Assembly (NCBI GenBank): GCA_965237785.1 | Contig: OZ250159.1 | Location: 455,989-519,988, forward strand | DNA: 64,000 nt | Direction: 5' to 3' | Origin: Candidatus Rariloculaceae bacterium | GTDB lineage: Bacteria; Pseudomonadota; Gammaproteobacteria; Steroidobacterales; Rariloculaceae | Part shown: piece by piece, positions 8,383 to 38,400 of the stretch | Layout of the letters: each line of letters opens with the position of its first letter | Numbering within the stretch: position 1 is the stretch's first letter | The notes under the pieces: model-generated | Database searches by the model: none | Told to the model about the DNA's origin: nothing | The model's input: only the letters and a program-made list of their open reading frames with translations | Translations under genes and position numbers: made by a program

Positions 8383-10050
8383 ATGTCGCAATCCGTTCAG
8401 GCGTTGCTGGCCGTGCTGCCGATTCTGGTTGCGGCGATTCTTCTGGTTGGTTTTCGTATGCCCGCGCGCGTCGCGATGCCGGCCGTGTACGTGCTTGCGG
8501 TGGTGATCGGGCTGTTTGCCTGGACGATGCCGGTCGCCCAAATCGCCGCGGCGTCGATTCAGGGTCTTTTCATCACCTTCGAGATCCTGTTCATCATTTT
8601 CGCGGCGATTCTCCTGCTCAATACCTTGAAACGCTCGGGTGCCATCGCCGCAATTCGGGCGGGCTTTGCCACCATCACCCCGGATCGGCGGGTGCAGGTC
8701 ATCATCATCAGTTGGCTCTTCGGAAGCTTCATCGAGGGCGCATCGGGTTTCGGGACGCCGGCGGCGATTACGGCTCCGTTGCTGGTTGCGCTGGGATTCC
8801 CGGCAATGACCGCGGTCATGCTGGGGATGATGGTTCAGAGTACGCCCGTGACGTTCGGCGCGGTGGGGACGCCGATTCTGGTGGGCGTGAGCGGTGGGCT
8901 GGATAGCCCGGAAGTGTCCCGGCAACTGGCGGCGGCAGGGATCGAGTTCGGAGACTATCTCCAGATCATCACCGAGCATGTGGTTTGGCTGCACGCGATC
9001 GTGGGGACGGTGATGCCGTTGTTCATGGTCGTGATGATGACGCGGTTTTTCGGCCGGAACCGCTCGTGGACGGAGGGCTTGTCGATCTGGCCGTTCGCGC
9101 TGCTCGGCGGAGTTGCCTTCACGTTGCCGTATTTGCTCAGCGGCATTTTTCTGGGACCCGCGTTTCCATCGCTGCTTGGCGGATTGGTCGGTCTGGCGAT
9201 TGTCACGACGGCGGCCAGGAAGCGGTTTCTGGTTCCCGATGACGAGTGGGATTTCGCGCCGCGCGCCGACTGGCCCCTCGATTGGGTCGGGCGCTTGGAA
9301 ATGCGCCTTGAAACGCCCAAAAAACAGATGTCGGGCGTGCGAGCATGGTCGCCCTACCTGTTGGTTGCCGGATTGCTCGTCATTTCGAGGCTCCCGCAAC
9401 TTCCTGTCGGCGAACTGTTGCGGACGCTGGTTTTTCGCTGGGAGTCGATCCTGGGTACGTCAGTGACGGCCACTACGACGCCCCTGTATCTGCCCGCCAC
9501 GATGGTGCTCGTGGCCGCGCTCGCGACAGTCGCGCTGCACCGCATGCGCGGGCGTCAGTTTGTCGCCGCGTTTACGGAATCGTCGAGAACGCTGTTGGGC
9601 GCCGGTTTCGTGCTCGTGTTCACGGTGCCCATGGTGCGCATCTATATCAACTCCGATGTGAACGCGCTGGGGCTCGAGAGCATGCCCATCGTGATGGCCG
9701 ACTGGGTTGCCGTCAATGTCGGCGCCGTGTGGCCATTCTTTGCGCCGTTCATCGGCGCGCTGGGGGCGTTCATCGCCGGCAGCAATACGGTCAGCAACCT
9801 CATGTTCGCCCTGTTGCAGCACGGTGTGGCCACCGCGCTGGGGATTTCCGCGGCGTTGGTGGTGGCGCTGCAAGCCGTGGGTGCGGCCGCGGGCAACATG
9901 ATTGCGATCCACAACGTCGTTGCGGCATCGGCCACGGTGGGGCTGCTTGGCCAGGAGGGCGCCACGCTGCGCCGCACGGTGATCCCGACGATCTACTATC
10001 TCGTCATGACCGGCGCGCTGGGCATGCTCGCGGTGAGTTTCCTCGGGTAG
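8383..10050 (+). CDS. lctP: L-lactate/glycolate permease family (LctP) transporter
   Basis: 555 aa, polytopic. [43 protein letters not shown] matches the conserved LctP-family block. Confidence 0.88.
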
Positions 10051-10222
10051 AACCGAATTTGTGCTCGGCGAACCGGAGACTGGATTCGGGCATACTATGC
10101 GCCCATCTCCACTTAGGAAGGCACCAAGTAGAGTTGGTCCCTTTCCGTAATTGGTTTCGGTGCCGGCAACGCTTGACGCGACCGTGCCGGGCACGCTTTA
10201 TGAGGATGTAGCAGGAGCATAG

Positions 10223-12991
10223 GTGGCACGTAAGAAGCAGGCAACGGGCCGCGCTGGCGCCCGTAAGAAAGGGCGGAGTGCCGGAAGTTACGCACATCCT
10301 GAAGCAAGCGCGCTGCTCCGGCCCGACATAGGTACACAGGCGCAGTTTCGTAAGAAAAAACCGCTGGCCAGGTACCGTTACGACTCCTCGCTTTCTCCAG
10401 CGCTTGACTGGGATGTGCAGAACCCCTCGCGTGAGCACGCTGAGGCGAAAATTGCGGCGCTGTCGGATCGAATTGCAAAGTTATCCGGGATTCTTGATTC
10501 GAAAAATCTGGCAGGAATTCCCGAGAGCGACCTCGCTGAAGTAAGGGCTGAATTAGCTGCGGCACGGGAAGATGCCGCTCAATTGGCAACGCTCTCCAGA
10601 CCGTTTCTCAACTGGACGGGCAAGGCCGAGCGGCTCTCCTTCGACGTACCGACACTGCCGCTGTTCGTCCATGAACGCCTATCGACATCGGCAATCCTGG
10701 AAACCCTGAAAGGGCACACCCGCGACCGTCAGGTGAATATGTTCGATCTGTTCGGGGAGAGTGATCTGCCGATTCACGAACGGTTGCTCAAGGCATATGA
10801 GCACCAGAACGGCTGGGTGAACCGGTTGATCCTTGGCGACGCCCTGGTAGTGATGAATTCCCTACTCAACTACGAGGGGCTCGGTGGTCAAGTGCAGACC
10901 ATCTACATGGATCCCCCCTATGCCGTGAAATTCGGTTCGAACTTCCAGCCGTTCGTGCGCAAACGCGGCGTTACGCACGGCGACGACGAAAACATGATCC
11001 GCGAACCGGAGATGGTGCAAGCCTACCGGGACACATGGGAACTGGGCATTCATTCCTTCCTGACCTATCTGCGGGATCGGCTGACACTGGCGCGGGAAAT
11101 GCTTCATCCTTCCGGAAGTATCTTCGTGCAGATGTCCGACACTAATCTGCATCACGTCCGCGAGGTGCTGGACGAGGTGTTCGGACCCGAGTGCTTCGTC
11201 TCGCAGATCAGCTTTCAGACCACCTCGGGCTTTCGGACCAAGACACTGGCGACACTCGGCGACTTCTTGCTGTGGTATGCGCGAGACCCGGAACGGCTGA
11301 AAGTTAGAAAGTTGTTCGAGGAGCAGCCTGCCATACCGGGCGAGGGGAATGCGAGATGGGTCCTGCTTCCGGACGGAACCTATCGGGGCGTGACCGCTGC
11401 GGAGAAACGCCGGGAAGTGCCACTGCCTGCCGATGCCCGGTATTATAATCCTGATAATTTGCAGTCGCAGGGAGCGGCCCGGGACCCGCAGCCCTTCGAA
11501 TTCGGGGGTAAAGTTTACCAACCGGGCGCCAATTCGCACTGGAAACCCAACTACCCCGACGGGCTTGAGGAGCTTGTCGCTGCGGGTCGGATTCACGTGG
11601 CCGCCAACAGCATTAGATACCGCCGGTTTGCCACGGATTTTCCATTCAAGGAGCGGGGAAACCTCTGGACGGACACCCTCACAGGCAGCTTCACGGGCGA
11701 GAAAACATACGTCGTGCAGACGAATCCCAAGGTTATCGAGCGCTGCCTGCTGATGACCACCGATCCGGGCGACCTCGTTCTGGATCCTACCTGCGGTTCG
11801 GGGACGACCGCCTATTGCGCGGAGAAATGGGGGCGGCGGTGGATCACCGTCGACACTTCCCGAGTACCCATCGCGCTCGCCCGGCAGCGGCTGCTCACCA
11901 GCACTTTCGACTTCTATCAACTCAAGGAGCCTGATCGGGGACCTGCCGGAGGCTTCGACTATCGTCGCAAAACGAACTCCAAGGGGGAAGAAGTCGGCGG
12001 AATCGCGCCACACGTGACACTCGAATCGATCGCTAACAACGAGCCGGCGAAGGAGGAAGTGCTCGTTGACCGGCCGGAAAAGGACGGCGGCATAACGCGC
12101 GTGAGCGGGCCATTCTGGATTGAAGCGACCATACCGACTCCGGTGGATTGGGAGGGGGACGGTGAGGAGGACTCGGGCGACATTCTTGCTGCCGCCGCTT
12201 ACACGAACCATGTAGAGCGTATGGTCGAGGTGCTGCGGCGTTCGCCGGTGCTGCATCTCGGTGGCGGTCGAAGGCTCAGCCTGTCCAAGGTACGTCCGCC
12301 CGCCCGTTCCATGAGTCTGTCCGCGGAGGCTCTGGTGGAAGATGACGGCAAGCAGAGGGTTGCAATTGTCTTCGGACCCGAGAATGGCGCAGTCTCGGAA
12401 ACTCTGGTGTTCGAGGCGGCACGCGAAGCCTACGGCAAAGCATACGACCACCTCTACGCGATCGGATTTGCCATCCAGCCCGACGCAAGGCGTCTGGTCG
12501 AGGAATGCGAGAAAGCGGTCGGAGTGGCCGCGACTTACGTGCAGGCGAGCATGGATCTGGTGATGGGAGACTTGCTCAAGAACCTGCGGTCGAGCCAGAT
12601 TTTCTCGGTCTGTGGGTTGCCGGACATACGGATACGCCGAGCAGAAACGAAAAGCTACCAGGTTGAACTTCTCGGACTCGACGTTTTCGATCCCGTGGAG
12701 ATGGATTCCGACCATCGGAGCGGAAATGACGTCCCCGCGTGGTTCCTCGATACGGACTACAACGGACTCTGTTTCCATGTCTGTCAGGCGTTCTTTCCGC
12801 GGACTTCAGCGTGGAGCGCACTCAGGCGTTCGCTTCGCGGCGAATTCGATGACGATGTGTGGTCACATTTATCGGGCACGGTCAGCACTCCGTTTCAAGC
12901 GGGTGGACACGGCCAGATCGCGGTGAAAGTTGTCGATGATCGAGGCAATGAACTGATGGTCGTCAAGCCGCTTTCGGATACCGAGACGTGA
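10223..12991 (+). CDS. mod: Type III restriction-modification Mod subunit (beta-class N6/N4 DNA methyltransferase)
   Basis: GTG 10223 after AGGAG. Motif IV IYMDPPYAVKF (~10901-10930) precedes motif I LVLDPTCGSGTTA (~11771-11812). The stop overlaps the next start (GTGA at 12988-12991). Confidence 0.88.
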   Translation: MARKKQATGRAGARKKGRSAGSYAHPEASALLRPDIGTQAQFRKKKPLARYRYDSSLSPALDWDVQNPSREHAEAKIAALSDRIAKLSGILDSKNLAGIPESDLAEVRAELAAAREDAAQLATLSRPFLNWTGKAERLSFDVPTLPLFVHERLSTSAILETLKGHTRDRQVNMFDLFGESDLPIHERLLKAYEHQNGWVNRLILGDALVVMNSLLNYEGLGGQVQTIYMDPPYAVKFGSNFQPFVRKRGVTHGDDENMIREPEMVQAYRDTWELGIHSFLTYLRDRLTLAREMLHPSGSIFVQMSDTNLHHVREVLDEVFGPECFVSQISFQTTSGFRTKTLATLGDFLLWYARDPERLKVRKLFEEQPAIPGEGNARWVLLPDGTYRGVTAAEKRREVPLPADARYYNPDNLQSQGAARDPQPFEFGGKVYQPGANSHWKPNYPDGLEELVAAGRIHVAANSIRYRRFATDFPFKERGNLWTDTLTGSFTGEKTYVVQTNPKVIERCLLMTTDPGDLVLDPTCGSGTTAYCAEKWGRRWITVDTSRVPIALARQRLLTSTFDFYQLKEPDRGPAGGFDYRRKTNSKGEEVGGIAPHVTLESIANNEPAKEEVLVDRPEKDGGITRVSGPFWIEATIPTPVDWEGDGEEDSGDILAAAAYTNHVERMVEVLRRSPVLHLGGGRRLSLSKVRPPARSMSLSAEALVEDDGKQRVAIVFGPENGAVSETLVFEAAREAYGKAYDHLYAIGFAIQPDARRLVEECEKAVGVAATYVQASMDLVMGDLLKNLRSSQIFSVCGLPDIRIRRAETKSYQVELLGLDVFDPVEMDSDHRSGNDVPAWFLDTDYNGLCFHVCQAFFPRTSAWSALRRSLRGEFDDDVWSHLSGTVSTPFQAGGHGQIAVKVVDDRGNELMVVKPLSDTET

Positions 12992-14631
12992 TCCACACAG
13001 TCCGAATTTGCGGCTTCAAGCGATTCCAGGATGTGGAATTCCACTTGCCGGGGCACCTGGTTTTAGCAGGTCCCAACAATACCGGTAAAACTACAGTGCT
13101 TCAGGCCATCGCCTCATGGTCGCTTGCCTTGCGGCAGTGGAGAGCGCTGAACGACTTCAATCCTCGACAAGGATACACGAATGCGCCGATTGCCCGGCAT
13201 GCGTTCGCGTCGGTTCCCCTCAGGAGCTTCGATCTGATGTGGACGGACCGCCAATATCGGGGGAAGATCGAGATCGAGATTCGGCACAACACGGGCTGGT
13301 CAGTGACGATGGAGTTCATCGCCGACAGCACGGAGCAGATATACGTTCGGCCAGCGAACACGCCTGCTGATGTTTTACGAGAGCTCGATCTTCGTGCGGT
13401 ATTCATCCCTCCCATGACTGGTCTTGAAGTCGACGAGCCACTTTATCAGCGTCCGAAAATTGAGCAGCTTCTCGGCCTCGGCCGTCCAGGCGATGTCCTG
13501 CGAAATCTGCTGGTGGAAGTGAACACCAACGAGTCTGCTTGGGATGCGCTCCAAGCTTCCATAAAAAAGCTATTCGGCTACGAACTCCTGCCTCCCGATT
13601 CCAGCGGCGCGCACATTCTTTCCGAATACAGGATGGTGGAAGGCGGGCAATCTTTGGACATCGCGAGTGCCGGCAGCGGTTTTCAACAAGTTCTGATGCT
13701 GCTCGCGTTTCTCAACACACGAGAGGGCGCGGTACTGCTCCTGGACGAACCGGACGCGCATCTACACTTGATTCTCCAGGACGCGATTTACCATGAGTTA
13801 CGGACGGTTGCCGCCCGGCAGCATTCGCAGCTCATCGTTGCGACCCACTCTGAGGTCGTGATCAACACGGTCGAACCTCGTGAGTTGTGCGTCTTGGTCA
13901 ACCAACCGCGTATGGTTGCCGACAACGTTGAGCGAGGGAGACTAATTTCTTCGCTTCGCGTATTGAGCAACGCGGACGTGATGCAGGCCCTGAGTGTCCG
14001 TGGCGTCCTTTATGTGGAGGATTTTACTGACATCAATATCCTTCGTTCGTGGGCTGCCCAGCTCGGACACCAGGCCGAGAATCTATTGACCACGGAATTG
14101 ATGTGGAAACCGGTGGTCTTTCAGGCGCAGGACGGACGACCGGGAATCAGGGCGCGGGATCATTTCGATGCCTTGCGGATCGTGCACGACAATCTTCCTG
14201 GACTCGAACTCGTCGACGGTGATGCGCATCCGGCGATCCAGGCCAGCGAGATCACTGGGACTGGCTTGCAGCGGCAACGCTGGCAGCGCTACGAGATCGA
14301 AAGCTACCTCATCCACCCGGATGCGCTCGCCCGTTTCGTGACAGCCATGGTAGGGGCAGACTCTGCTGCACCGCATGTGGAGGACATGCTTGCCTACTGG
14401 CGCGACGAGTTTCCGCCGGCGGTGGTAAGGAATCCGCTCGCTGACCACGAATTCCTGAATACGACCAAGGCTCGTACGCGGCTAATTCCGCCGCTACTGG
14501 AAGCGGCGGAAATCTTCATTCCCTACACCCGCTACCATGAGATTGCAGCGTTGATGCTTCCTGAAGAAATCCACCCCGAAGTCGTGGAGAAACTGGATGC
14601 AATCTGCCTCGCATTCCGAGTCGAGCCGTGA
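12988..14631 (+). CDS. ABC-type ATPase fused to a TOPRIM/DUF4435-like domain (OLD-family / PARIS-like protein)
   Basis: Walker A GPNNTGKTT (13069-13095). Signature-like SAGSGFQQVL. Walker B/D-loop LLLDEPDAHLH (~13735-13767). H-loop VATHSE. C-terminal half has YVEDFTD (~14010-14030), LVDGDAH (~14208-14230) and YEIESYL (~14290-14310), matching the TOPRIM order Glu ... DxD ... E. The ATPase call is confident; the TOPRIM call is motif-level only. Confidence 0.65.
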   Translation: MIHTVRICGFKRFQDVEFHLPGHLVLAGPNNTGKTTVLQAIASWSLALRQWRALNDFNPRQGYTNAPIARHAFASVPLRSFDLMWTDRQYRGKIEIEIRHNTGWSVTMEFIADSTEQIYVRPANTPADVLRELDLRAVFIPPMTGLEVDEPLYQRPKIEQLLGLGRPGDVLRNLLVEVNTNESAWDALQASIKKLFGYELLPPDSSGAHILSEYRMVEGGQSLDIASAGSGFQQVLMLLAFLNTREGAVLLLDEPDAHLHLILQDAIYHELRTVAARQHSQLIVATHSEVVINTVEPRELCVLVNQPRMVADNVERGRLISSLRVLSNADVMQALSVRGVLYVEDFTDINILRSWAAQLGHQAENLLTTELMWKPVVFQAQDGRPGIRARDHFDALRIVHDNLPGLELVDGDAHPAIQASEITGTGLQRQRWQRYEIESYLIHPDALARFVTAMVGADSAAPHVEDMLAYWRDEFPPAVVRNPLADHEFLNTTKARTRLIPPLLEAAEIFIPYTRYHEIAALMLPEEIHPEVVEKLDAICLAFRVEP

Positions 14632-17600
14632 ACCCTCACGAGGTTCCCGAGCCAATCCTGAACTCGCCTTTCGAGGAACCGAGGGAGCATTGGCGCATCG
14701 TGGAGTACGAACCGCCGGAGCGGCGGGTTGGCCGGCGCCCAGCCATGTACTTCTACCGGCCGCCCGGAAGCGAATCCTCGCCGGAACGGCAGGGAGTCGG
14801 AACGGCAATCGGGTTGAAGTTGGTCAACCGGATTCGCGCCAAACTCGCCGAGTGGAGAACATTGGCGCTACGGGGCGAAGGCGGCGTGACTCGAACCACA
14901 ATGGAGTTGTTGCGCTATTGGCGCCGGGAGGATCGCAAGCACCGGCTGTTTTTCGCGCAGCTTGAAGCTGCTGAAACGATCATTTTCCTCGCGGAGGCAC
15001 GGGCGGACTTCTTGCAAGGGATCGATGTCCCGCTCGACCAGCCCAGTGCGGATGCGCAGGCCGACGGAATCCGGGCTTTCCGGCGTTACGCATGCAAGAT
15101 GGCGACGGGCACGGGAAAGACGACGGTCATGGGCATGCTTGCCGCCTGGAGCATTCTCAACAAGGTGACGGATCGGGGAAACGCACGGTACTCGGACGTG
15201 GTACTCGTTGTCTGCCCTAACGTAACAATCCGAAACCGGCTCGAAGAACTCAAGCCGCAAGGGGGCGAAGCCAGCCTGTACCGCACGCGCGACCTCGTCC
15301 CGCCGCGCTTCATGCCGCAACTCGCTCAAGGACACGTGCTGGTCACCAACTGGCACGTGTTCGAACCAAAAGCGATTCAAGTTGCGGGCCAGTCGGCGAA
15401 GGTCGTTCGCGCCGGTCGCGAGGTCCGGACAAGGGAAACTATCCGTATCGGCGCCAAGACAACGACAGTGCGCGGTGTGCGCTATCTGACCTTGAATGCT
15501 CTCGAACGGCAAACGGCCGCTGGGCTGATTGACATTCTGGATGAACACCGGGATCGGCAAGACAACCTCAAGGCCGTCTCGGTGGAATCGTTTCGGTATG
15601 TCGAGAGCGACACCAAGCTCATCGAACGCGTGCTCGGGCGCGAAATCGGAGGCAAACGAAATATCCTGGTCATGAACGACGAAGCCCATCACGCTTATCG
15701 GTTACGGCCCACCGAAACGGACGAAGGCGAGAAAGACTTGTTCGGCGAATTGGACGATGTAGAGGAGTACTACCGAGAGGCCACCGTGTGGGTCGACGGT
15801 CTGGATCGAATTCACAAGCATCGCGGCATCAACCTATGCATCGACCTTTCCGCGACGCCGTACTTTCTGGGGCGGGCCGGACAGGACGCGAACCGCCCGT
15901 TTCCCTGGGTCGTCTGCGATTTTGGGCTCATCGATGCCATCGAGTCGGGTCTGGTCAAGATCCCGCAACTCGCTGTTCGCGACACCAGCGGTAACGCGGT
16001 TCCCGGTTACTTCAACATCTGGCGCTGGATTCTTCCGAAGCTGACGCCAGCGGAACGCGGTGGGAGGCGCGGACGCGTGAAGCCGGAAGCCGTGCTCAAG
16101 TACGCGCACGTGCCGGTGGTGATGCTCGGTGGTTTGTGGGATGCGCTACGTGCGGAGTGGTCGCGGCGCGAAGGAGATAGCCGGCCACCCGTTTTCATCA
16201 TCGTTTGCAACAATACCGCGCTCGCCAAGGTTATTTTTCAGTGGCTCGCCGAGGACAAGGCGCCGGTGGGTATACCCCCGGCGCGGATCGACGAATTGCG
16301 TAACGCGAACGGGAATAACTACACGATTCGCGTGGACTCCAAGGTCGTGCGTGAATCTGACAGCGGGCAGGCGAAGTCTGACGAAGATCGGTGGATGCGT
16401 TTTACGCTGGATACGGTCGGAAAGATCGATTGGCCAATGGACGGGCAAAGGCGCTCTATCTACCCGGAGGGGTTCGAGGCGTTAGCGAAGAAACTTGAGC
16501 GCACACTACATCCGCCTGGCCGGGATGTGCGGTGCATTGTAAGCGTGGGAATGTTAACAGAGGGATGGGACTGCAATACCGTTACCCATATCATCGGACT
16601 TCGCCCCTTCATGTCCCAATTGCTTTGCGAGCAAGTTGTCGGTAGAGGTCTGCGGAGATCCAGCTATGCCGTGGGAGAAGATGGCAAGCTGGGCGAGGAA
16701 GTCGCCAAGATCTTCGGCGTCCCGTTCGAGATCGTGCCGCTGAAGGAGAACCCTCCGGGCGTTGACCCGAAGCCCGACGCGAAGACCTGGCGGATCCGGG
16801 CAGTGCCTGAGAAGGTGCATCTGGAGATTCGTTTTCCGCGCGTGGAGGGCTACATCCAGGGGATCCGGCACCGCGTGAAGGTGGACTGGGAGAACATAGC
16901 CCCGCTCCGACTCGATCCGATGGACATCCCGCCCGAGGTGGAAATGAAGGCGGGGCTTCCGAGCAACACGGGCAGGCCGTCCCTCGTCGGTCCGGGACAT
17001 CTTGAGCGCGTGGATCTCAACCCTTACCGCAAGGGGCGTCGCCTCCAGCAACTGGTATTCGAAATGGCGCGAGACCTTACTCGGGAATACCGGCAACAAC
17101 CCGGCTGCGATGCGCCGGCGCATGTGTTGTTTTCCCAGCTTGCGCTCATCGTCACTCGCTACCTCAAAGAGAAGGTTCATCCCATCGATCCGGCGCGGGA
17201 CGTCGACGCGTTCCTTTCTCCTTGGTACGGGTGGCTCGTGGAACGGCTTGTAACCGCCATCCAGCCAGACAACGAGAGCGGGGAGGATGCCGAGTTGCCA
17301 CGTTTCGAGAGCGGTCGGCGACCCGGATCAACGAACGAGGTTGACTTTGACACGCGTCAAGAACCTTATCCGGTCGTCAAGAGCCATATCAATGCGGTCG
17401 TGCCCGATACGGCCAAGTGGGAGCAAATGGCTGCGTATCGACTGGACAAGCATGACCATGTGCAGGCTTTCGTAAAGAATGCTGGGCTCGGTTTTGCAAT
17501 CCCGTATTTTCACAATGGTGAGCACCATGAGTATCTGCCCGACTTTATTATCCGGCTGACGGGAGACCGAGAGCGCTACCTTATACTGGAAACGAAGGGC

Positions 17601-17753
17601 TACGATCCACTTGAGGAGGTAAAAGCGCAGGCGGCGAACAGGTGGGTCCGGGCTGTGAATACCGACGCGGGCTTCGGCACTTGGGATTATGCCGTCGTAT
17701 CGGATATGAGCAAGGTTGGAGATGAGGTCGACCGGTCGGCGGCCTCATTGTAG
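14628..17753 (+). CDS. res: Type III restriction enzyme Res subunit (SF2 helicase plus C-terminal PD-(D/E)xK nuclease)
   Basis: The GTG start overlaps the upstream stop (GTGA 14628-14631). Motif I KMATGTGKTT (~15096-15131), motif II VMNDEAHHAY (~15666-15695), MLTEGWDCNTV, motif VI QVVGRGLRR (~16631-16657). C-terminal YLPDFIIRL...YLILETKGYD (~17538-17607) is nuclease-like. Confidence 0.9.
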   Translation: MNPHEVPEPILNSPFEEPREHWRIVEYEPPERRVGRRPAMYFYRPPGSESSPERQGVGTAIGLKLVNRIRAKLAEWRTLALRGEGGVTRTTMELLRYWRREDRKHRLFFAQLEAAETIIFLAEARADFLQGIDVPLDQPSADAQADGIRAFRRYACKMATGTGKTTVMGMLAAWSILNKVTDRGNARYSDVVLVVCPNVTIRNRLEELKPQGGEASLYRTRDLVPPRFMPQLAQGHVLVTNWHVFEPKAIQVAGQSAKVVRAGREVRTRETIRIGAKTTTVRGVRYLTLNALERQTAAGLIDILDEHRDRQDNLKAVSVESFRYVESDTKLIERVLGREIGGKRNILVMNDEAHHAYRLRPTETDEGEKDLFGELDDVEEYYREATVWVDGLDRIHKHRGINLCIDLSATPYFLGRAGQDANRPFPWVVCDFGLIDAIESGLVKIPQLAVRDTSGNAVPGYFNIWRWILPKLTPAERGGRRGRVKPEAVLKYAHVPVVMLGGLWDALRAEWSRREGDSRPPVFIIVCNNTALAKVIFQWLAEDKAPVGIPPARIDELRNANGNNYTIRVDSKVVRESDSGQAKSDEDRWMRFTLDTVGKIDWPMDGQRRSIYPEGFEALAKKLERTLHPPGRDVRCIVSVGMLTEGWDCNTVTHIIGLRPFMSQLLCEQVVGRGLRRSSYAVGEDGKLGEEVAKIFGVPFEIVPLKENPPGVDPKPDAKTWRIRAVPEKVHLEIRFPRVEGYIQGIRHRVKVDWENIAPLRLDPMDIPPEVEMKAGLPSNTGRPSLVGPGHLERVDLNPYRKGRRLQQLVFEMARDLTREYRQQPGCDAPAHVLFSQLALIVTRYLKEKVHPIDPARDVDAFLSPWYGWLVERLVTAIQPDNESGEDAELPRFESGRRPGSTNEVDFDTRQEPYPVVKSHINAVVPDTAKWEQMAAYRLDKHDHVQAFVKNAGLGFAIPYFHNGEHHEYLPDFIIRLTGDRERYLILETKGYDPLEEVKAQAANRWVRAVNTDAGFGTWDYAVVSDMSKVGDEVDRSAASL

Positions 17754-17802
17754 TCATCCCGTACTCGGCAGGATTAAAACTTGATTAAGCGATAGTAGCG
17801 GC

Positions 17803-19011
17803 CTACTGGAGGACAAACTTCTGCACGCGCTTGCCGGTCAGGACCTCGCCCGTGTAGATGTTGCCCTGTGAATCGCTGGCGATGCCGTCGATCCAGTAGA
17901 ACTGCCCGGCGTTGCGGCCGGGGCTTCCGAATTGCCCCACCTCCTCGCCGGTGAAGCGATCATGGATCCACACCCTGTGGTTCGTGCCGTCGGCGACGAA
18001 TACGTATTGCTGGTTCTCATCGTGGGAAAACGCCAGGTTGTAGGTGGTTCCGCACATGGGCCACTCGTTGCTGCCGGGGCCACCGCAGCCGGTTCCGTCC
18101 GGATTGCTGCGCGCCTGCGTGTTCGGGGACACCATGAACTCCGATACGTACTCGCCGGCCTTGGTGAAGACCTGGATTCGATTCATGCCGCGCTCGCAAA
18201 CATAGACCAGTCCATCGTCGGAAAGCATGACGCAGTGAACGGCCGGGACAAAACCGTCGTGATCGGGCGGCGGCCCACCGGTCCATAGGTAACCAGGCTC
18301 GGGGTCGTTGCTGATTTCACTGAGCGGTTTGCCGCGTCCGCCCCAGCCTCGCTTGTAGTCGCCATTGTCCATGTCGTATACAAGCACGCGCTTGCCGTTT
18401 TCGAGCACGTAGATCTCGCGTGCTTCCTCATCCAGGGCGATGTTGAATACGCCGTTGCGGAGGATTTCGGTTTCCTGATTGTCCTGGAAGTTGCGCGGCA
18501 TCGGCGCCTCGCCGGGGGCGGGCCTCGACCCACGATGGGGAAAATCCCAGAGAAACTCGCCTTCCCGGGTGAACTTCATGAGACCCTCGCCTTGACCCAG
18601 CGCCGCGACCCAGACGTTGAACTCGCTGTCGACAATCACTGTCTGCGGCCGTGTGGGCCAAAGGGGATGGTGATCCGGGCCGCCCCAGGCATTGACCACG
18701 TTCCCCGCCGGATCGAACTCGACGATATCGGGCGCGGCGATGCAGCAATCGCCTCGGGGCGGATCGTAGGAGGCCATGGCCTCATCGGGCCGTATGTCGT
18801 CGGACCGACTGATGATCCAGACGTGGTCCCGGTCATCCGTGGTCATGGTCGGTACCCCCTGGACAATCCAGGCATTGGGCAGTGGCACGTTGGGCCAGAA
18901 AGGATCCACCTGGTACTGCGGGACCGGGACGTCTTGAGCCTGGACGCCCGAAAGCGGAATGAGCCCGAAGAGCGCGATCGCGATTAAAGGAGTTGACGGC
19001 CGAATTCTCAT
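17803..19011 (-). CDS. NHL-repeat beta-propeller protein (secreted)
   Basis: ATG 19011 after AGGAGG gives the signal peptide MRIRPSTPLIAIALFGLIPLSGVQAQ. NHL-type repeats include VADGTNHRVWIHD...GSPGRNAGQFYWIDGIASDSQGNIYTGEV..KRVQKF. ORF-track start 19164 is probably spurious. Confidence 0.8.
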   Translation of the reverse strand: MRIRPSTPLIAIALFGLIPLSGVQAQDVPVPQYQVDPFWPNVPLPNAWIVQGVPTMTTDDRDHVWIISRSDDIRPDEAMASYDPPRGDCCIAAPDIVEFDPAGNVVNAWGGPDHHPLWPTRPQTVIVDSEFNVWVAALGQGEGLMKFTREGEFLWDFPHRGSRPAPGEAPMPRNFQDNQETEILRNGVFNIALDEEAREIYVLENGKRVLVYDMDNGDYKRGWGGRGKPLSEISNDPEPGYLWTGGPPPDHDGFVPAVHCVMLSDDGLVYVCERGMNRIQVFTKAGEYVSEFMVSPNTQARSNPDGTGCGGPGSNEWPMCGTTYNLAFSHDENQQYVFVADGTNHRVWIHDRFTGEEVGQFGSPGRNAGQFYWIDGIASDSQGNIYTGEVLTGKRVQKFVLQ

Positions 19012-35432: not shown

Positions 35433-38400
35433 TCACCAGCGCACCGAGCCCTGCAGCCGCAACGCTGCCTCGGCCACGCCGCGCGTGCCCGTTCGCCGGC
35501 CGAGCTCGAGCCCCGCCTCGAGGTTCGCGCCCGACGTGAGCTTCACGCCCATCCGCAAGGCCCGTTGCCCGGCGGAAGCTTCCGTGCCGAGGAACGGCAC
35601 CCAGAGCGCGCGGCCCCTGCGTCCCTCAAGGCCGTAGCCGAGCTCGGCGTGCAACCGCCGGGCGGCATCCATCCCTGCGCCCCGGGCGATTCCCGAGGCG
35701 TCCTGGCGGCTCCACAGCGCGTTCACGCCGCTTGCGGTGTCGCCCCAGCTCGAACCCGCGTCCATCGCCCAGCCGCGCCCGTCCTCGTTGGGCTGCCACT
35801 TCACCGATCCGCTGAACCCCCATTCCTCGTACGCGGCGTCCTCGTGCGCGACAAGCCCCCGCACGTTGACCTCGACCGACACCCGCCCGGCCGTGTAGGC
35901 CACTCCGCCGCCGAGCTCCACACCGGCGCCCGTCTCGGCGTCCCCGCCGTCGTAGCGCAGCCCCGCCTCGAGCGTCGGGCGCAGCACCGCGCCGTTCGAA
36001 AGCGCCATGGATCCCGAACCTTCAAGCATCAGCCGCACGCGGCTCGACGCGCCCTCGGCGCCCATCAGACCCGTCGCGGCCTCGGACACCGTGTTCGTGA
36101 AGAGCGCGTCGGACACGACCGCGAGCTCCAACCCGCCCCCGCGGCGGGAAAACACGCCCCGCCCGCCGAACGCCGCCAGAGCGGATTCAAGACCCGTCCC
36201 GATCGCGTCGTCGGCGCGCTCGCTCCGAAGAGCGAGATCGCCCACGCCGTAACCGACCGCGCCCCACAGGCTCAACCGCTCGTTGAGCGTGAAGTTCGCG
36301 TACGGGTTGACGCTCGTCAGACGGCTCGTCAGTTCGCCGCCGGCGCCGGCGCTTGCATGGCTGTAGGCGCCCTCGCCGAAACTGTGCGACACCGCCACGC
36401 CCGCCAGCCACCGGCCCCACCGGGCGTCGGCGCCGACGGTGGCCGTGGCCACCTCGCCGTCGATCGAAAGCTTCCCGTCGGCGCCGCTGAACCGCGTCTC
36501 CGCCGCCCGGCCCCAGGCCGACCAGCTTGCAAGCCCGTTCGCGGTCCCCGCCCCGTCGTCCAGCGTTCGCGAGTAATCGAACGAACTGCCCATGAGCAGC
36601 GCCCGCCAGTCCTCGCGCCCCCTCGACAGCAGATCCGCGAACGGCCGGGCCGTGGACAGCAGTCCGGCGGACGACAGTCCCGCCGGCAGCACGCCCGCGG
36701 ACGACAGCCCGGCGGACACCAGATCTTCGAGTCCCGCGCGTGCTGCCGACGGCAGTCCTGCGGACGCCAGTTCTGCGGACGCCAGTCCTGCGTCGTTCGA
36801 TCCTGAACGCGACGCGCCTGAAGACGACAAGCCCGTGGGCGCCGGTCCGCCCATCCGCGGGGCCCCGCCCGCGGACCCGCCCGCCGCAAGCCCGATGCTG
36901 CCGGGCGTCGCCCACCAGCCCATGGATTCGGCCTTGAGCCGGTCCATGCGCTCCCAGGCCGATTCGTCCTCAAGGCGCCTGTCCGGCGCGGCCCGGTCCG
37001 CGGTCTCCTTCGCATTGCCGCCCCGGGCGGCGCTGCGCAACTCGTTCAACAGTTGATCCACGCGCCGTCCGCCCACCGTGAACTGGTTTTCCTCGGGCCG
37101 GCGCGGCCCGCCGGTGAGCCGCTCGCGGATCGCATCGACCGTCTGAACCGACGAGGTGCGACCGAACCGCGCCAGCCACGCCTTCGGCATGGGGTCGGAG
37201 TTGTTGATGGTGCCCGTCGCCTTGCCGTCGGCGATGGTTGCGCCGGAAGGGTTGGAGAGCGTCATCGTCAGGGTCTCCGCGCCCTCGTCGTGGCTGTCGT
37301 CCAGCACCGCGATGGAGACGATCCTTCGCTGCTGCCCGCGGGCGAAGGTGAGCGTGCCGCTGCGCGAGTGGTAGTCCTGGCCCGCGGTCGCGGGATTCGC
37401 GCCGGCGCCGTCCGCGGTCGCGTAGTCCACCGTGACCGTGGTGCTCGGCGCCCGGTTCAGCGTGACCGCGAAGTCGAGCAGCGTCGCGTCGTTCTCCTTC
37501 TCGTCCACCGACGCGTCCGCCACCGAGAGTGCCGGCGGCGGTGGGCCTTCCTCAACGGCTTCCTCCTCTACGGGGTCATCCTCGGCCGGGTCATCCTCGG
37601 CCGCGTCGTCCTCGGCCGGGTCGTCCTCGGCCGGATCATCCTCAGCCGGGTCATCCTCAACCGGGTCGTCCTCGGCCGCGTCACCCTCGGCCGGCTCCCG
37701 GTCCGTGTCGGCTCCGCTCGCGGAGTCGCCCGGAGCCTCATCCTCGCGGTTCAGGATCGTCCCCGTCGCCCGGTCGTCGCCGATTTGCGCGCCCCTGGCC
37801 TCGTAGAGGTGAAAGTAAAACGTCTCGCCGCTGTCCTTGTCCTCATCGTCCACGATCGGCACCTCGACGATTTTCCGCCACTCGCCGGCGGCAAAGGTCA
37901 GCGTGCCCGTGGTCTCCTCGTAGTCCGCTCTCACCGTCGCCGTGCCGGACGACGTGTAGTACCGCACCGTCACCTCCCCGGCGGCCGCCGGCGACAGCCT
38001 CACCGCGAACCGGATCGCCGGGTTCGTCCCTTCCCGGCCCTCGGCGTCCGCCACCGACAACGCCGGCGTCGTCCCCACCGGGTCCGCCACGATCCGGCTG
38101 AACTCCGCCACGTGGGGCACGGAGTGCCATTTTCCCGCGGCCCGCAGGTTGTCCGATTCTTCGTACGACTTCCAGTAGCTGACCGAGACGGTCTCGCCGT
38201 CCGACGGCCCGTCGTACTCCGTCCCCCCGCGTATCACCGGGTTCAACGTGAGCCGCACGATCCGGCAGGCCTGGCCGTTGGACGTGCAGGCGCTCCCATT
38301 GCGCGCCTGCACGATCTCGGTCAGGTTCACGCTGTTCGCGGCCAGGGTGTCTGGAAGACCGGCCGGCGCCGATTCCGAATAATGCACCCCGAACTGCGGC

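Follow-up and report, generated by a model that had tools for sequence, protein, structure and literature searches.

What is a gene for a fused ATPase and predicted nuclease doing between the two genes of a restriction–modification (R-M) operon? The window, a stretch of 64,000 nucleotides from a Candidatus Rariloculaceae bacterium (contig OZ250159.1), holds such a gene on its plus strand: an open reading frame (ORF) with a GTG start, 12988..14631, whose 547-residue product we refer to here as the ATPase–Toprim protein. Upstream of it is a Type III-like DNA methyltransferase (Mod) and downstream a Type III-like restriction endonuclease (Res). The gene is probably a PARIS/OLD-like second-line defence module, embedded and semi-autonomous, which is accessory to the Type III-like R-M system and co-expressed with it by translational coupling. 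Bearing on this reading are domain composition, a fold model, residue conservation, operon structure, and recurrent linkage to and co-divergence with Mod and Res, each of which is directly observed.

The N-terminal half is a complete OLD/ABC-type (ATP-binding cassette) ATPase, with matches far above chance. All of the motifs quoted in a first-pass annotation of the window, made from the letters alone, are found in the 547-residue ORF (GPNNTGKTT, residues 28–36; SAGSGFQQVL, 227–236; LLLDEPDAHLH, 250–260; VATHSE, 284–289), and the full ABC/SMC-type set that it described is thereby confirmed. In Pfam, AAA_21 (3e-19, 70.6 bits, cut-off 27) and AAA_15 (1e-17, 65.4 bits, cut-off 32.1) both exceed their thresholds, as the ATPase domain of PARIS is defined to do, and SMC_N also matches. 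Over the full protein the leading PADLOC models are NsnB (2.5e-22) and AriA (1.6e-21), with PtuA, GajA, Old and mad3 among the others, and sequence and profile searches of the PDB return Thermus OLD, PtuA, GajA and AriA (best profile match 6p74, 6.5e-17). Residues K34, Q39, G231, D253, E254 and H287 are kept in 44–47 of 47 relatives. The GTG start at 12988 is backed by a conserved family N-terminus, MIxxVxxxNFK, in homologue alignments. A public record of the gene (P0001) gives a shorter product of 464 residues (100% identical, 85% coverage), called from an internal start codon with loss of the Walker A region.

Fused to the ATPase is a C-terminal half whose family, searched with residues 300–547, comprises 372 clusters at 50% identity, 195 of them at E ≤ 1e-10. 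The fusion is fixed in the family, because the match sits almost always at about residues 310–570 of proteins 540–600 residues long; the top 120 clusters of a larger database are all full-length relatives, at 73–78% identity. Located here are the three elements that the first-pass annotation had listed, a Glu motif (GVLYVEDFTDINILRSW, residues 339–355), a DxD motif (LELVDGDAH, 406–414) and an E-containing helix (RYEIESYLIHPDAL, 434–447); the spacing from E344 to D410 is 66 residues, where about 68 had been given. Conservation was measured in 47 full-length members that are 30–55% identical to the window protein. Invariant among them are D348, D410, W432, E438 and Y440 (47/47 each), and nearly so is E344 (45/47); position 412 is D in 35 and N in 9 members, and position 436 is E in 44 and D in 3.

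An AlphaFold2 (AF2) model built from these 47 diverse homologues (ma7780a002a53) is confident, with a pLDDT (predicted local distance difference test) score of 93.5 and a predicted template-modelling (pTM) score of 0.87; the model from an alignment of 30 close homologues was too poor for use (pLDDT 47). In the model, two linker helices (residues 313–336) lead into a β-strand (339–343) followed by E344, then helices 346–359 and 363–370, a strand (371–375), a helix (389–399), a strand (405–409) followed by D410-G-D412, a strand (427–431), and a helix (437–441) that carries E438, with E436 just before it. Toprim domains are defined by acidic residues at the C-terminal ends of β1 and β3 (PMC12065111), and this β–α–β topology, with acids at the C-terminal ends of those two strands, is the Toprim arrangement. 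A non-Toprim fold or poorly conserved catalytic residues had been named in advance as outcomes that would speak against the domain; the model has the fold, and E344 and D410 are retained to the extent given above. Against the PDB, Foldseek places Thermus scotoductus OLD first for the full-length model (6p74, E of 6e-12, 493 aligned columns), followed by PtuA and GajA.

The subtype of the Toprim domain emerges from the relatives. When the 47 were scanned one by one with Pfam, DUF4435 (PF14491) matched in 7 (best E 7e-6), and an isolated relative C-terminus aligns from residues 29–138 to model positions 4–104 of 238 (E of 8e-5, 23 bits), a match that spans the β1 strand to the ExE helix in register. 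Among 32 isolated relative C-termini, PADLOC found AriAB in 25 (best 7e-8) and AriB in 10 (best 1.4e-8), with positions 1–110 of the 236 in the AriB model aligned to residues of about 26–150 of the segments, that is, to the Toprim core. No other model recurred on these 32, neither Old nor GajA, mad4 or HEC-04; the mad4 model does match other proteins that were scanned (a mad3/mad4-like pair), yet none of the 32. The 47 relatives matched 58 Pfam families in all, and the 25 that recur most do not include the OLD-type Toprim PF20469. Because the C-termini of the relatives match AriAB, AriB and DUF4435, and never Old or GajA, we place the domain in the AriB/DUF4435 lineage and not with the OLD/GajA Toprim. 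A Toprim of AriB/DUF4435 type, and with it a putative nuclease, is therefore supported by sequence comparison and by the fold model. The first-pass annotation had proposed a single chain of ABC ATPase and TOPRIM-like domain, fused in the manner of AriA and AriB, and the AF2 model, the matches of the relatives and the conserved catalytic residues back it.

Less well founded was its argument from the dipeptide at residues 344–345, which is E-D in place of the usual E-G and was taken to set the protein outside the standard OLD classes. Among the 47 diverse members, position 345 is most often G (30), then D (13), with S in 2 and N and A once each (family consensus LYVEGxTD); in the window's own clade at about 75% identity, 27 of 30 members have D and 3 have N. 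As the position varies within the family, the dipeptide is no ground for exclusion from any class; to judge from these alignments, D345 is a tolerated, clade-level substitution beside the catalytic Glu. What does set the gene apart from OLD classes 1–4 is its partners, Mod and Res. That those classes are defined by genomic partner had been said correctly, and the partner itself, the pair of R-M genes between which the gene is coupled, had been overlooked. The classes are 1, solo; 2, with a UvrD-like helicase; 3, with a retron reverse transcriptase; and 4, with separate AriA and AriB; the window gene fits none of them, although the solo copies, 14 among 69 assessable relatives, look like class 1.

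Beyond the Toprim core is a family-specific domain, all-helical in the AF2 model, in which A520, E527, H529 and L536 are nearly invariant (E527 in 45 and H529 in 43 of 47) and which bears the motif EIHPEV..KLD. No known model matched its residues 446–547, and it lies mostly outside the AriB, AriAB and DUF4435 matches, with the AriAB stretch of one relative reaching residue 211 of a 237-residue segment. This domain, with its EIHPEV motif, may have a part in the active site or in oligomer formation.

The gene overlaps both of its neighbours (Table 1). The TGA stop of Mod overlaps its GTG start at the junction acGTGAtcc, and its own TGA stop overlaps the GTG start of Res at gccGTGAacc; with a 4-base-pair GTGA overlap at both junctions, Mod, the ATPase–Toprim gene and Res therefore form one translationally coupled operon. 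In the Mod translation, IYMDPPY lies upstream of DPTCGSGTT, a FxGxG-type S-adenosylmethionine motif, which is the arrangement of a Type III Mod. Res comprises a superfamily 2 helicase and a C-terminal PD-(D/E)xK nuclease (MATGTGKT, NDEAHH and PDFII...LILETKG in translation); it matches ResIII and, weakly, RE_endonuc in Pfam, and lies downstream of Mod, as a Type III Res does. Because the PADLOC REase_III models match it weakly (8e-9), 'Type III-like' is the safer wording. A literature search on BPTD_3080, the name of the Res family, gave nothing.

Table 1. Features of the mod–res operon and of the ATPase–Toprim protein, in window coordinates.
Feature	Position	Strand	Basis
Type III-like DNA methyltransferase (Mod), 922 residues	10223..12991	+	PADLOC MTase_III PDLC03632 3.2e-144; Pfam N6_N4_Mtase 5.7e-25
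Fused OLD/ABC-type ATPase and putative AriB/DUF4435-type Toprim nuclease, 547 residues	12988..14631	+	Profiles, conservation, AF2 model
ABC (OLD-ABC) ATPase domain, residues 1–~310	12988..13917	+	Pfam, PADLOC, Foldseek, conservation
Walker A GPNNTGKTT	13069-13095	+	Motif
Signature SAGSGF	13666-13695	+	Motif
Walker B/D-loop LLLDEPDAHLH	13735-13767	+	Motif
H-loop ATHSE	13837-13854	+	Motif
Predicted Toprim core, residues ~337–445	13996..14322	+	AF2 model; invariance; AriB/DUF4435 alignment in relatives
β1 339–343, then E344xxxD348	14002-14052	+	AF2 model
β3 405–409, then D410-G-D412	14203-14229	+	AF2 model
β4 427–431, then W432..E436-I-E438-S-Y-L	14287-14328	+	AF2 model
C-terminal helical domain, family-specific, residues ~446–547	14323..14628	+	AF2 model (all-helical); conservation
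BPTD_3080-family restriction endonuclease (Type III-like Res), 1041 residues	14628..17753	+	NCBIfam NF046055, 1021.6 bits (cut-off 800), full length

Several other assignments of the operon were considered and rejected. Hma or Type-1 BR was rejected for Mod and Res, there being no DUF499 ATPase and the Pfam match of Mod being to N6_N4_Mtase only, with no DUF1156 (cf. PMC12839542), and membership of MADS was rejected on the score of NCBIfam MAD3, 47 bits against a cut-off of 420. Menshen was set aside too: its NsnB is the best PADLOC match of the ATPase–Toprim protein, but as a generic OLD-ABC ATPase, and there is no DUF3696 among the Pfam matches listed and no NsnA- or NsnC-like neighbour was seen. 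The guanine-plus-cytosine (G+C) content of the cassette is 0.56–0.605 (window positions 10001–18000) against 0.61–0.66 in most of the flanks (5–10 and 18–23 kilobases (kb)), which is compatible with horizontal acquisition. Within 30 kb there is no transfer RNA (tRNA) gene that could point to an integration site.

Residence between mod and res recurs in the family. In a scan of one genome per species, relatives occur in at least 508 species of many phyla, among them Pseudomonadota, Acidobacteriota, Nitrospirota, Planctomycetota, Verrucomicrobiota, Spirochaetota, Gemmatimonadota and Actinomycetota. The best 80 loci were classified, of which 69 were assessable and 11 were not: 45 of the 69 have a complete trio (31 tight Mod–X–Res trios and 14 with extra DNA), contig ends truncate 6 more that still fit a trio, 4 have decayed in part, and 14 stand solo. 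How close the ATPase is to the window copy goes with how close Res is (Spearman 0.90, n = 41) and, to a lesser degree, Mod (0.76); the three genes are therefore passed on and move together as one cassette, including between phyla at 70–76% identity. The cassettes in this identity range (L004–L016) are from metagenome-assembled genomes (MAGs) of Gammaproteobacteria, Thermodesulfobacteriota, Binatia, Latescibacterota, Spirochaetia and Alphaproteobacteria, and several loci at 46–54% identity (among L042, L045 and L058) bear names typical of sponge symbionts, which together suggests that the cassette crossed phyla recently inside a single habitat.

The linkage is not obligate on either side, and the solo copies are the first evidence of this: 12 of the 14 are uninterrupted ORFs with all motifs and 2 are frameshifted. 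Around these loci, which lack both Mod and Res, there is no common neighbour, the sole 'cluster' being an antisense-ORF artefact. Lying between hemC and hemD in one gammaproteobacterial MAG (OY282353; L004/L001, 8001–10204) is a cassette without Mod in which the ATPase–Toprim gene is intact. A 163-residue ORF downstream in this locus was considered as a small partner protein and rejected, as tblastn identified it as an N-terminal remnant of Res (80% identical, residues 1–101); since it corresponds to the first ~101 residues of Res, the locus is a decayed one. In a second gammaproteobacterial MAG (OY282378; L005, 7311–10243), a gap of 690 base pairs between Mod and the ATPase–Toprim gene holds a 95-residue ORF of GIY-YIG-like appearance, and the ATPase–Toprim match is stretched to 2243 base pairs, suggesting an insertion near its 3′ end.

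The converse, R-M genes without the insert, is seen on plasmids. The Res family is present on 44 of them (39 near full length) and the ATPase–Toprim family is absent, with merely ATPase-only matches at no more than 27% identity. On Mycobacterium avium pS2b (Res 59% identical) and on a Shinella plasmid, Mod is followed directly by Res, with codons overlapping or abutting. As the same R-M family occurs without it, the ATPase–Toprim gene is an insert and not a core restriction subunit: the insert is dispensable for the R-M family, and the gene is able to persist alone. On Picosynechococcus sp. PCC 7002 pAQ5 (L086, 6974–13658) the order is Res, UPF0175, DUF3368, Mod, with a toxin–antitoxin-like pair nested between the R-M genes. 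On viral contigs the ATPase–Toprim family is rare, with only 2 distant full-length matches.

Other modules occupy the same junction. Of seven gaps between Mod and the ATPase gene (about 1.7–2.0 kb) that were searched for ORFs, six hold other ABC-ATPase defence pairs: PD-T4-4 A+B (L063, 1.6e-105 and 5e-14), HEC-01 ATPase with DUF4276 (L071, 3.6e-188 and 6e-53), an AbiLi/PDC-M38-like ATPase with DUF3226 (L054), a mad3/mad4-like pair (L051), a PD-T4-4_A-like ATPase with an unannotated 152-residue protein (L042), and, from the ORFs, a similar-looking ATPase paired with a 153-residue protein (L046). The seventh gap (L047) holds a 164-residue ORF only, and this locus has, again from the ORFs, an ATPase with a small protein, similar in look to the HEC-01 pair of L071, between the ATPase–Toprim gene and Res. 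Given these pairs, the mod–res junction is a hotspot for ABC-ATPase/nuclease modules, and of these modules the fused AriAB-like one persists the most.

The architecture invites comparison with several known systems. In PARIS, AriA senses the anti-restriction protein Ocr and AriB is released and cleaves tRNA-Lys; merged ariAB genes make up two of its eleven clades (PMC9122126, PMC11464382), and PARIS-like pairs nested in BREX and BR loci have been read as back-up effectors against anti-restriction (PMC9009780, PMC12839542). Like merged AriAB, the window protein is one chain with an AAA_15/21 ATPase followed by a DUF4435-type Toprim, its relatives match AriAB and AriB in register, and its Glu after β1 corresponds to AriB E26; a restriction theme is also shared, as PARIS senses anti-restriction proteins and the window gene lies inside an R-M operon. 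PARIS is defined with DUF4435 at its gathering threshold of 27 bits (PMC9122126), whereas the nuclease domain of the window protein reaches none of the AriB or DUF4435 thresholds; the protein also falls some 150 residues short of the AriAB model in length and has the EIHPEV helical domain, and its gene lies on a chromosome, within a Type III-like R-M operon. Class 1 OLD proteins (P2 Old; Thermus scotoductus OLD, 6P74) share its domain order, its approximate length and the possibility of a lone gene. They differ in the Toprim, which in the window is AriB/DUF4435-like, with no Old or GajA match in PADLOC and no PF20469 among the matches shown, and in that the window copy and most of its relatives are nested in an R-M operon. 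By formal membership tests the protein, which would work like PARIS/OLD, is yet a clean member of neither.

Precedents for nesting are found in one preprint (bioRxiv 10.1101/2024.01.29.577857), where genes inside Hma, BREX, DISARM and Type I R-M often prove to be defence systems, a principle termed 'guilt by embedding'. The same preprint describes HEC-04, a validated fused ATPase–Toprim protein whose defence needs Walker A and an E/D/D metal site (Payne et al., bioRxiv 10.1101/2024.01.29.577857). The window gene resembles HEC-04 and the other embedded modules described there in that an ABC ATPase is joined to a Toprim, in one chain or as a pair, within an operon for methylation-based defence; the hosts named in the passages retrieved from that work are Hma, BREX, DISARM and Type I R-M, and the window host is a BPTD_3080-family Type III-like R-M system. 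The relation to HEC-04 is one of analogy only: its model is absent from the 25 top-scoring PADLOC families of the full protein and from the matches of the 32 isolated C-termini. PrrC, RloC and the rlo genes similarly place an ABC-type ATPase with a nuclease between R-M genes, as a back-up for when restriction is neutralised (PMC12065111, bioRxiv 10.1101/2024.01.29.577857), but PrrC and RloC carry an anticodon-nuclease domain in place of a Toprim and the R-M is of Type I instead of Type III-like, and no sequence relationship with them was found beyond the ABC ATPase. That an ABC-ATPase–Toprim back-up can nest inside an operon of methylation-based defence is known from earlier publications on BREX, BR, Hma and Type I R-M. 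What is added here is a widespread unannotated subfamily of compact form, with its own helical domain and a near-dedicated residence in a Type III-like R-M system with a hotspot junction.

For an embedded PARIS/OLD-like module we infer the following trigger, substrate, oligomeric state and abortive outcome. The ATPase heads would dimerise or oligomerise around ATP, with the Toprim site held closed. An infection cue, most likely an anti-restriction factor from the phage or a nucleic-acid structure arising when restriction fails, would shift the ATPase state and expose a two-metal Toprim site (E344, D348, D410, D412, E436 and E438). The nuclease might then cut host tRNA, like AriB and P2 Old, or DNA, like TsOLD and GajA, and growth arrest would follow, as a second line after restriction. 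P2 Old, an abortive tRNase, forms a tetramer, and once this is destabilised the Toprim site opens and tRNA is cut (bioRxiv 10.64898/2026.07.10.737580); TsOLD and GajA cleave DNA (PMC10568477). Because the nuclease is covalently fused, activation would come about through a change of conformation or of oligomeric state, as for Old and GajA, and not by release of a subunit, as in two-gene PARIS.

A number of observations weigh against reading the protein as a PARIS/OLD-like defence nuclease. The C-terminal half of the window protein has no Pfam match at E ≤ 10 and only a spurious E1-E2 match in PADLOC; a single-sequence search of the PDB with it (phmmer) found nothing. A profile of the C-terminal family, compared with PDB sequences, returned no AriB, OLD or GajA chain and only chance matches (NolR and YvqK). 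The DUF4435 gathering score of 27 bits is not reached by the relatives scanned individually (best 23 bits), and the full-length window protein scores 55 bits against AriAB with its best stretch in the ATPase (residues 218–316 to model positions 300–402), so that its link to AriB is transitive, through the relatives. The Foldseek rankings of the full-length model in the PDB and BFVD are dominated by the ATPase. The protein has 547 residues and the AriAB model 694, a difference of about 150, and the PARIS mechanism of AriB release therefore cannot apply literally. Anti-phage activity of the family is predicted from sequences and a model, and the tight co-divergence with Mod and Res would equally fit a physical partnership with the R-M enzyme.

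Such a partnership is the core of a rival account that we regard as possible though rather doubtful, in which the protein is a PrrC-like guard, bound and silenced by the Mod/Res complex, freed when a phage inhibitor disables that enzyme, and hence dependent on its neighbours. It has a precedent in PrrC, an ABC-type ATPase nuclease in a Type I hsd locus that is activated by the anti-restriction peptide Stp (as outlined in bioRxiv 10.1101/2024.01.29.577857). The linkage suits it well: of the assessable loci, 80% have a link to Mod, to Res or to both, in many cases through overlapping codons, the divergence of the ATPase tracks that of Res with a rho of 0.90, and coupling at both junctions would favour stoichiometric co-production. 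Yet plain co-inheritance of a cassette predicts the same co-divergence, the 12 intact solo copies retain all motifs, and the unrelated ABC-ATPase modules at the same junction argue for a permissive hotspot over a bespoke partnership. In its boldest form, to which we attach a similarly low probability, the protein would be the dedicated guard of one Type III-like lineage, a Toprim-based Type III counterpart of PrrC/EcoprrI, and the junction a true integration hotspot at which up to three ABC-ATPase abortive modules are stacked and co-translated.

An unlikely alternative dispenses with restriction altogether and sees an independent class-1-OLD-like DNA nuclease that hitch-hikes in the operon and senses aberrant DNA, such as ends or hairpins, in no relation to restriction or anti-restriction. 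The size and architecture are indeed closest to Thermus OLD (528 residues), the top structural and profile match, and intact solo copies exist, in keeping with TsOLD and P2 Old, which work as single genes (PMC10568477); the nuclease domain, however, matches AriB and AriAB but not a single Old, GajA or OLD-like Toprim model, and the linkage to one R-M family is far stronger than ordinary defence-island adjacency. Highly improbable is an integral third subunit that restriction itself would need as a further motor or nuclease, comparable to the ATPases of BREX, Hma and MADS, for although the operon is tightly packed and kept across phyla, MADS and Hma-type systems pair a methylase with ABC or AAA ATPases (PMC11464382, PMC12839542), and NCBIfam MAD3 and PADLOC mad3 match the ATPase weakly, the MAD3 score falls far short of its cut-off, Res has its own helicase and PD-(D/E)xK nuclease, same-family pairs with a Res up to 59% identical have Mod directly overlapping Res with no ATPase, and the ATPase–Toprim gene survives alone.

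Were the gene an embedded PARIS/OLD-like module, a family of at least 508 species, seen merely as an AAA_15/AAA_21 ATPase and invisible to Pfam DUF4435, would be one of PARIS/OLD-type defence nucleases, and the reach of 'guilt by embedding', so far BREX, Hma, DISARM and Type I R-M, would grow to include Type III-like R-M. The BPTD_3080-family mod–res junction could then be mined for new ABC-ATPase defence modules, and the compact fused AriAB-like protein would be a handy system for the gating of a covalently attached Toprim by an ABC ATPase. The operon would represent a testable form of layered immunity, restriction with a back-up that possibly senses anti-restriction. Current concepts would not be overturned by this: a variant would be filled in, not a new kind of system added. 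One source labels a member of the family 'predicted ATPase'.

Elsewhere in the window, on the minus strand at 35433–63975, is a run of very large ORFs (2080, 2394, 3370 and 2098 residues) that are unrelated to the ATPase–Toprim gene.

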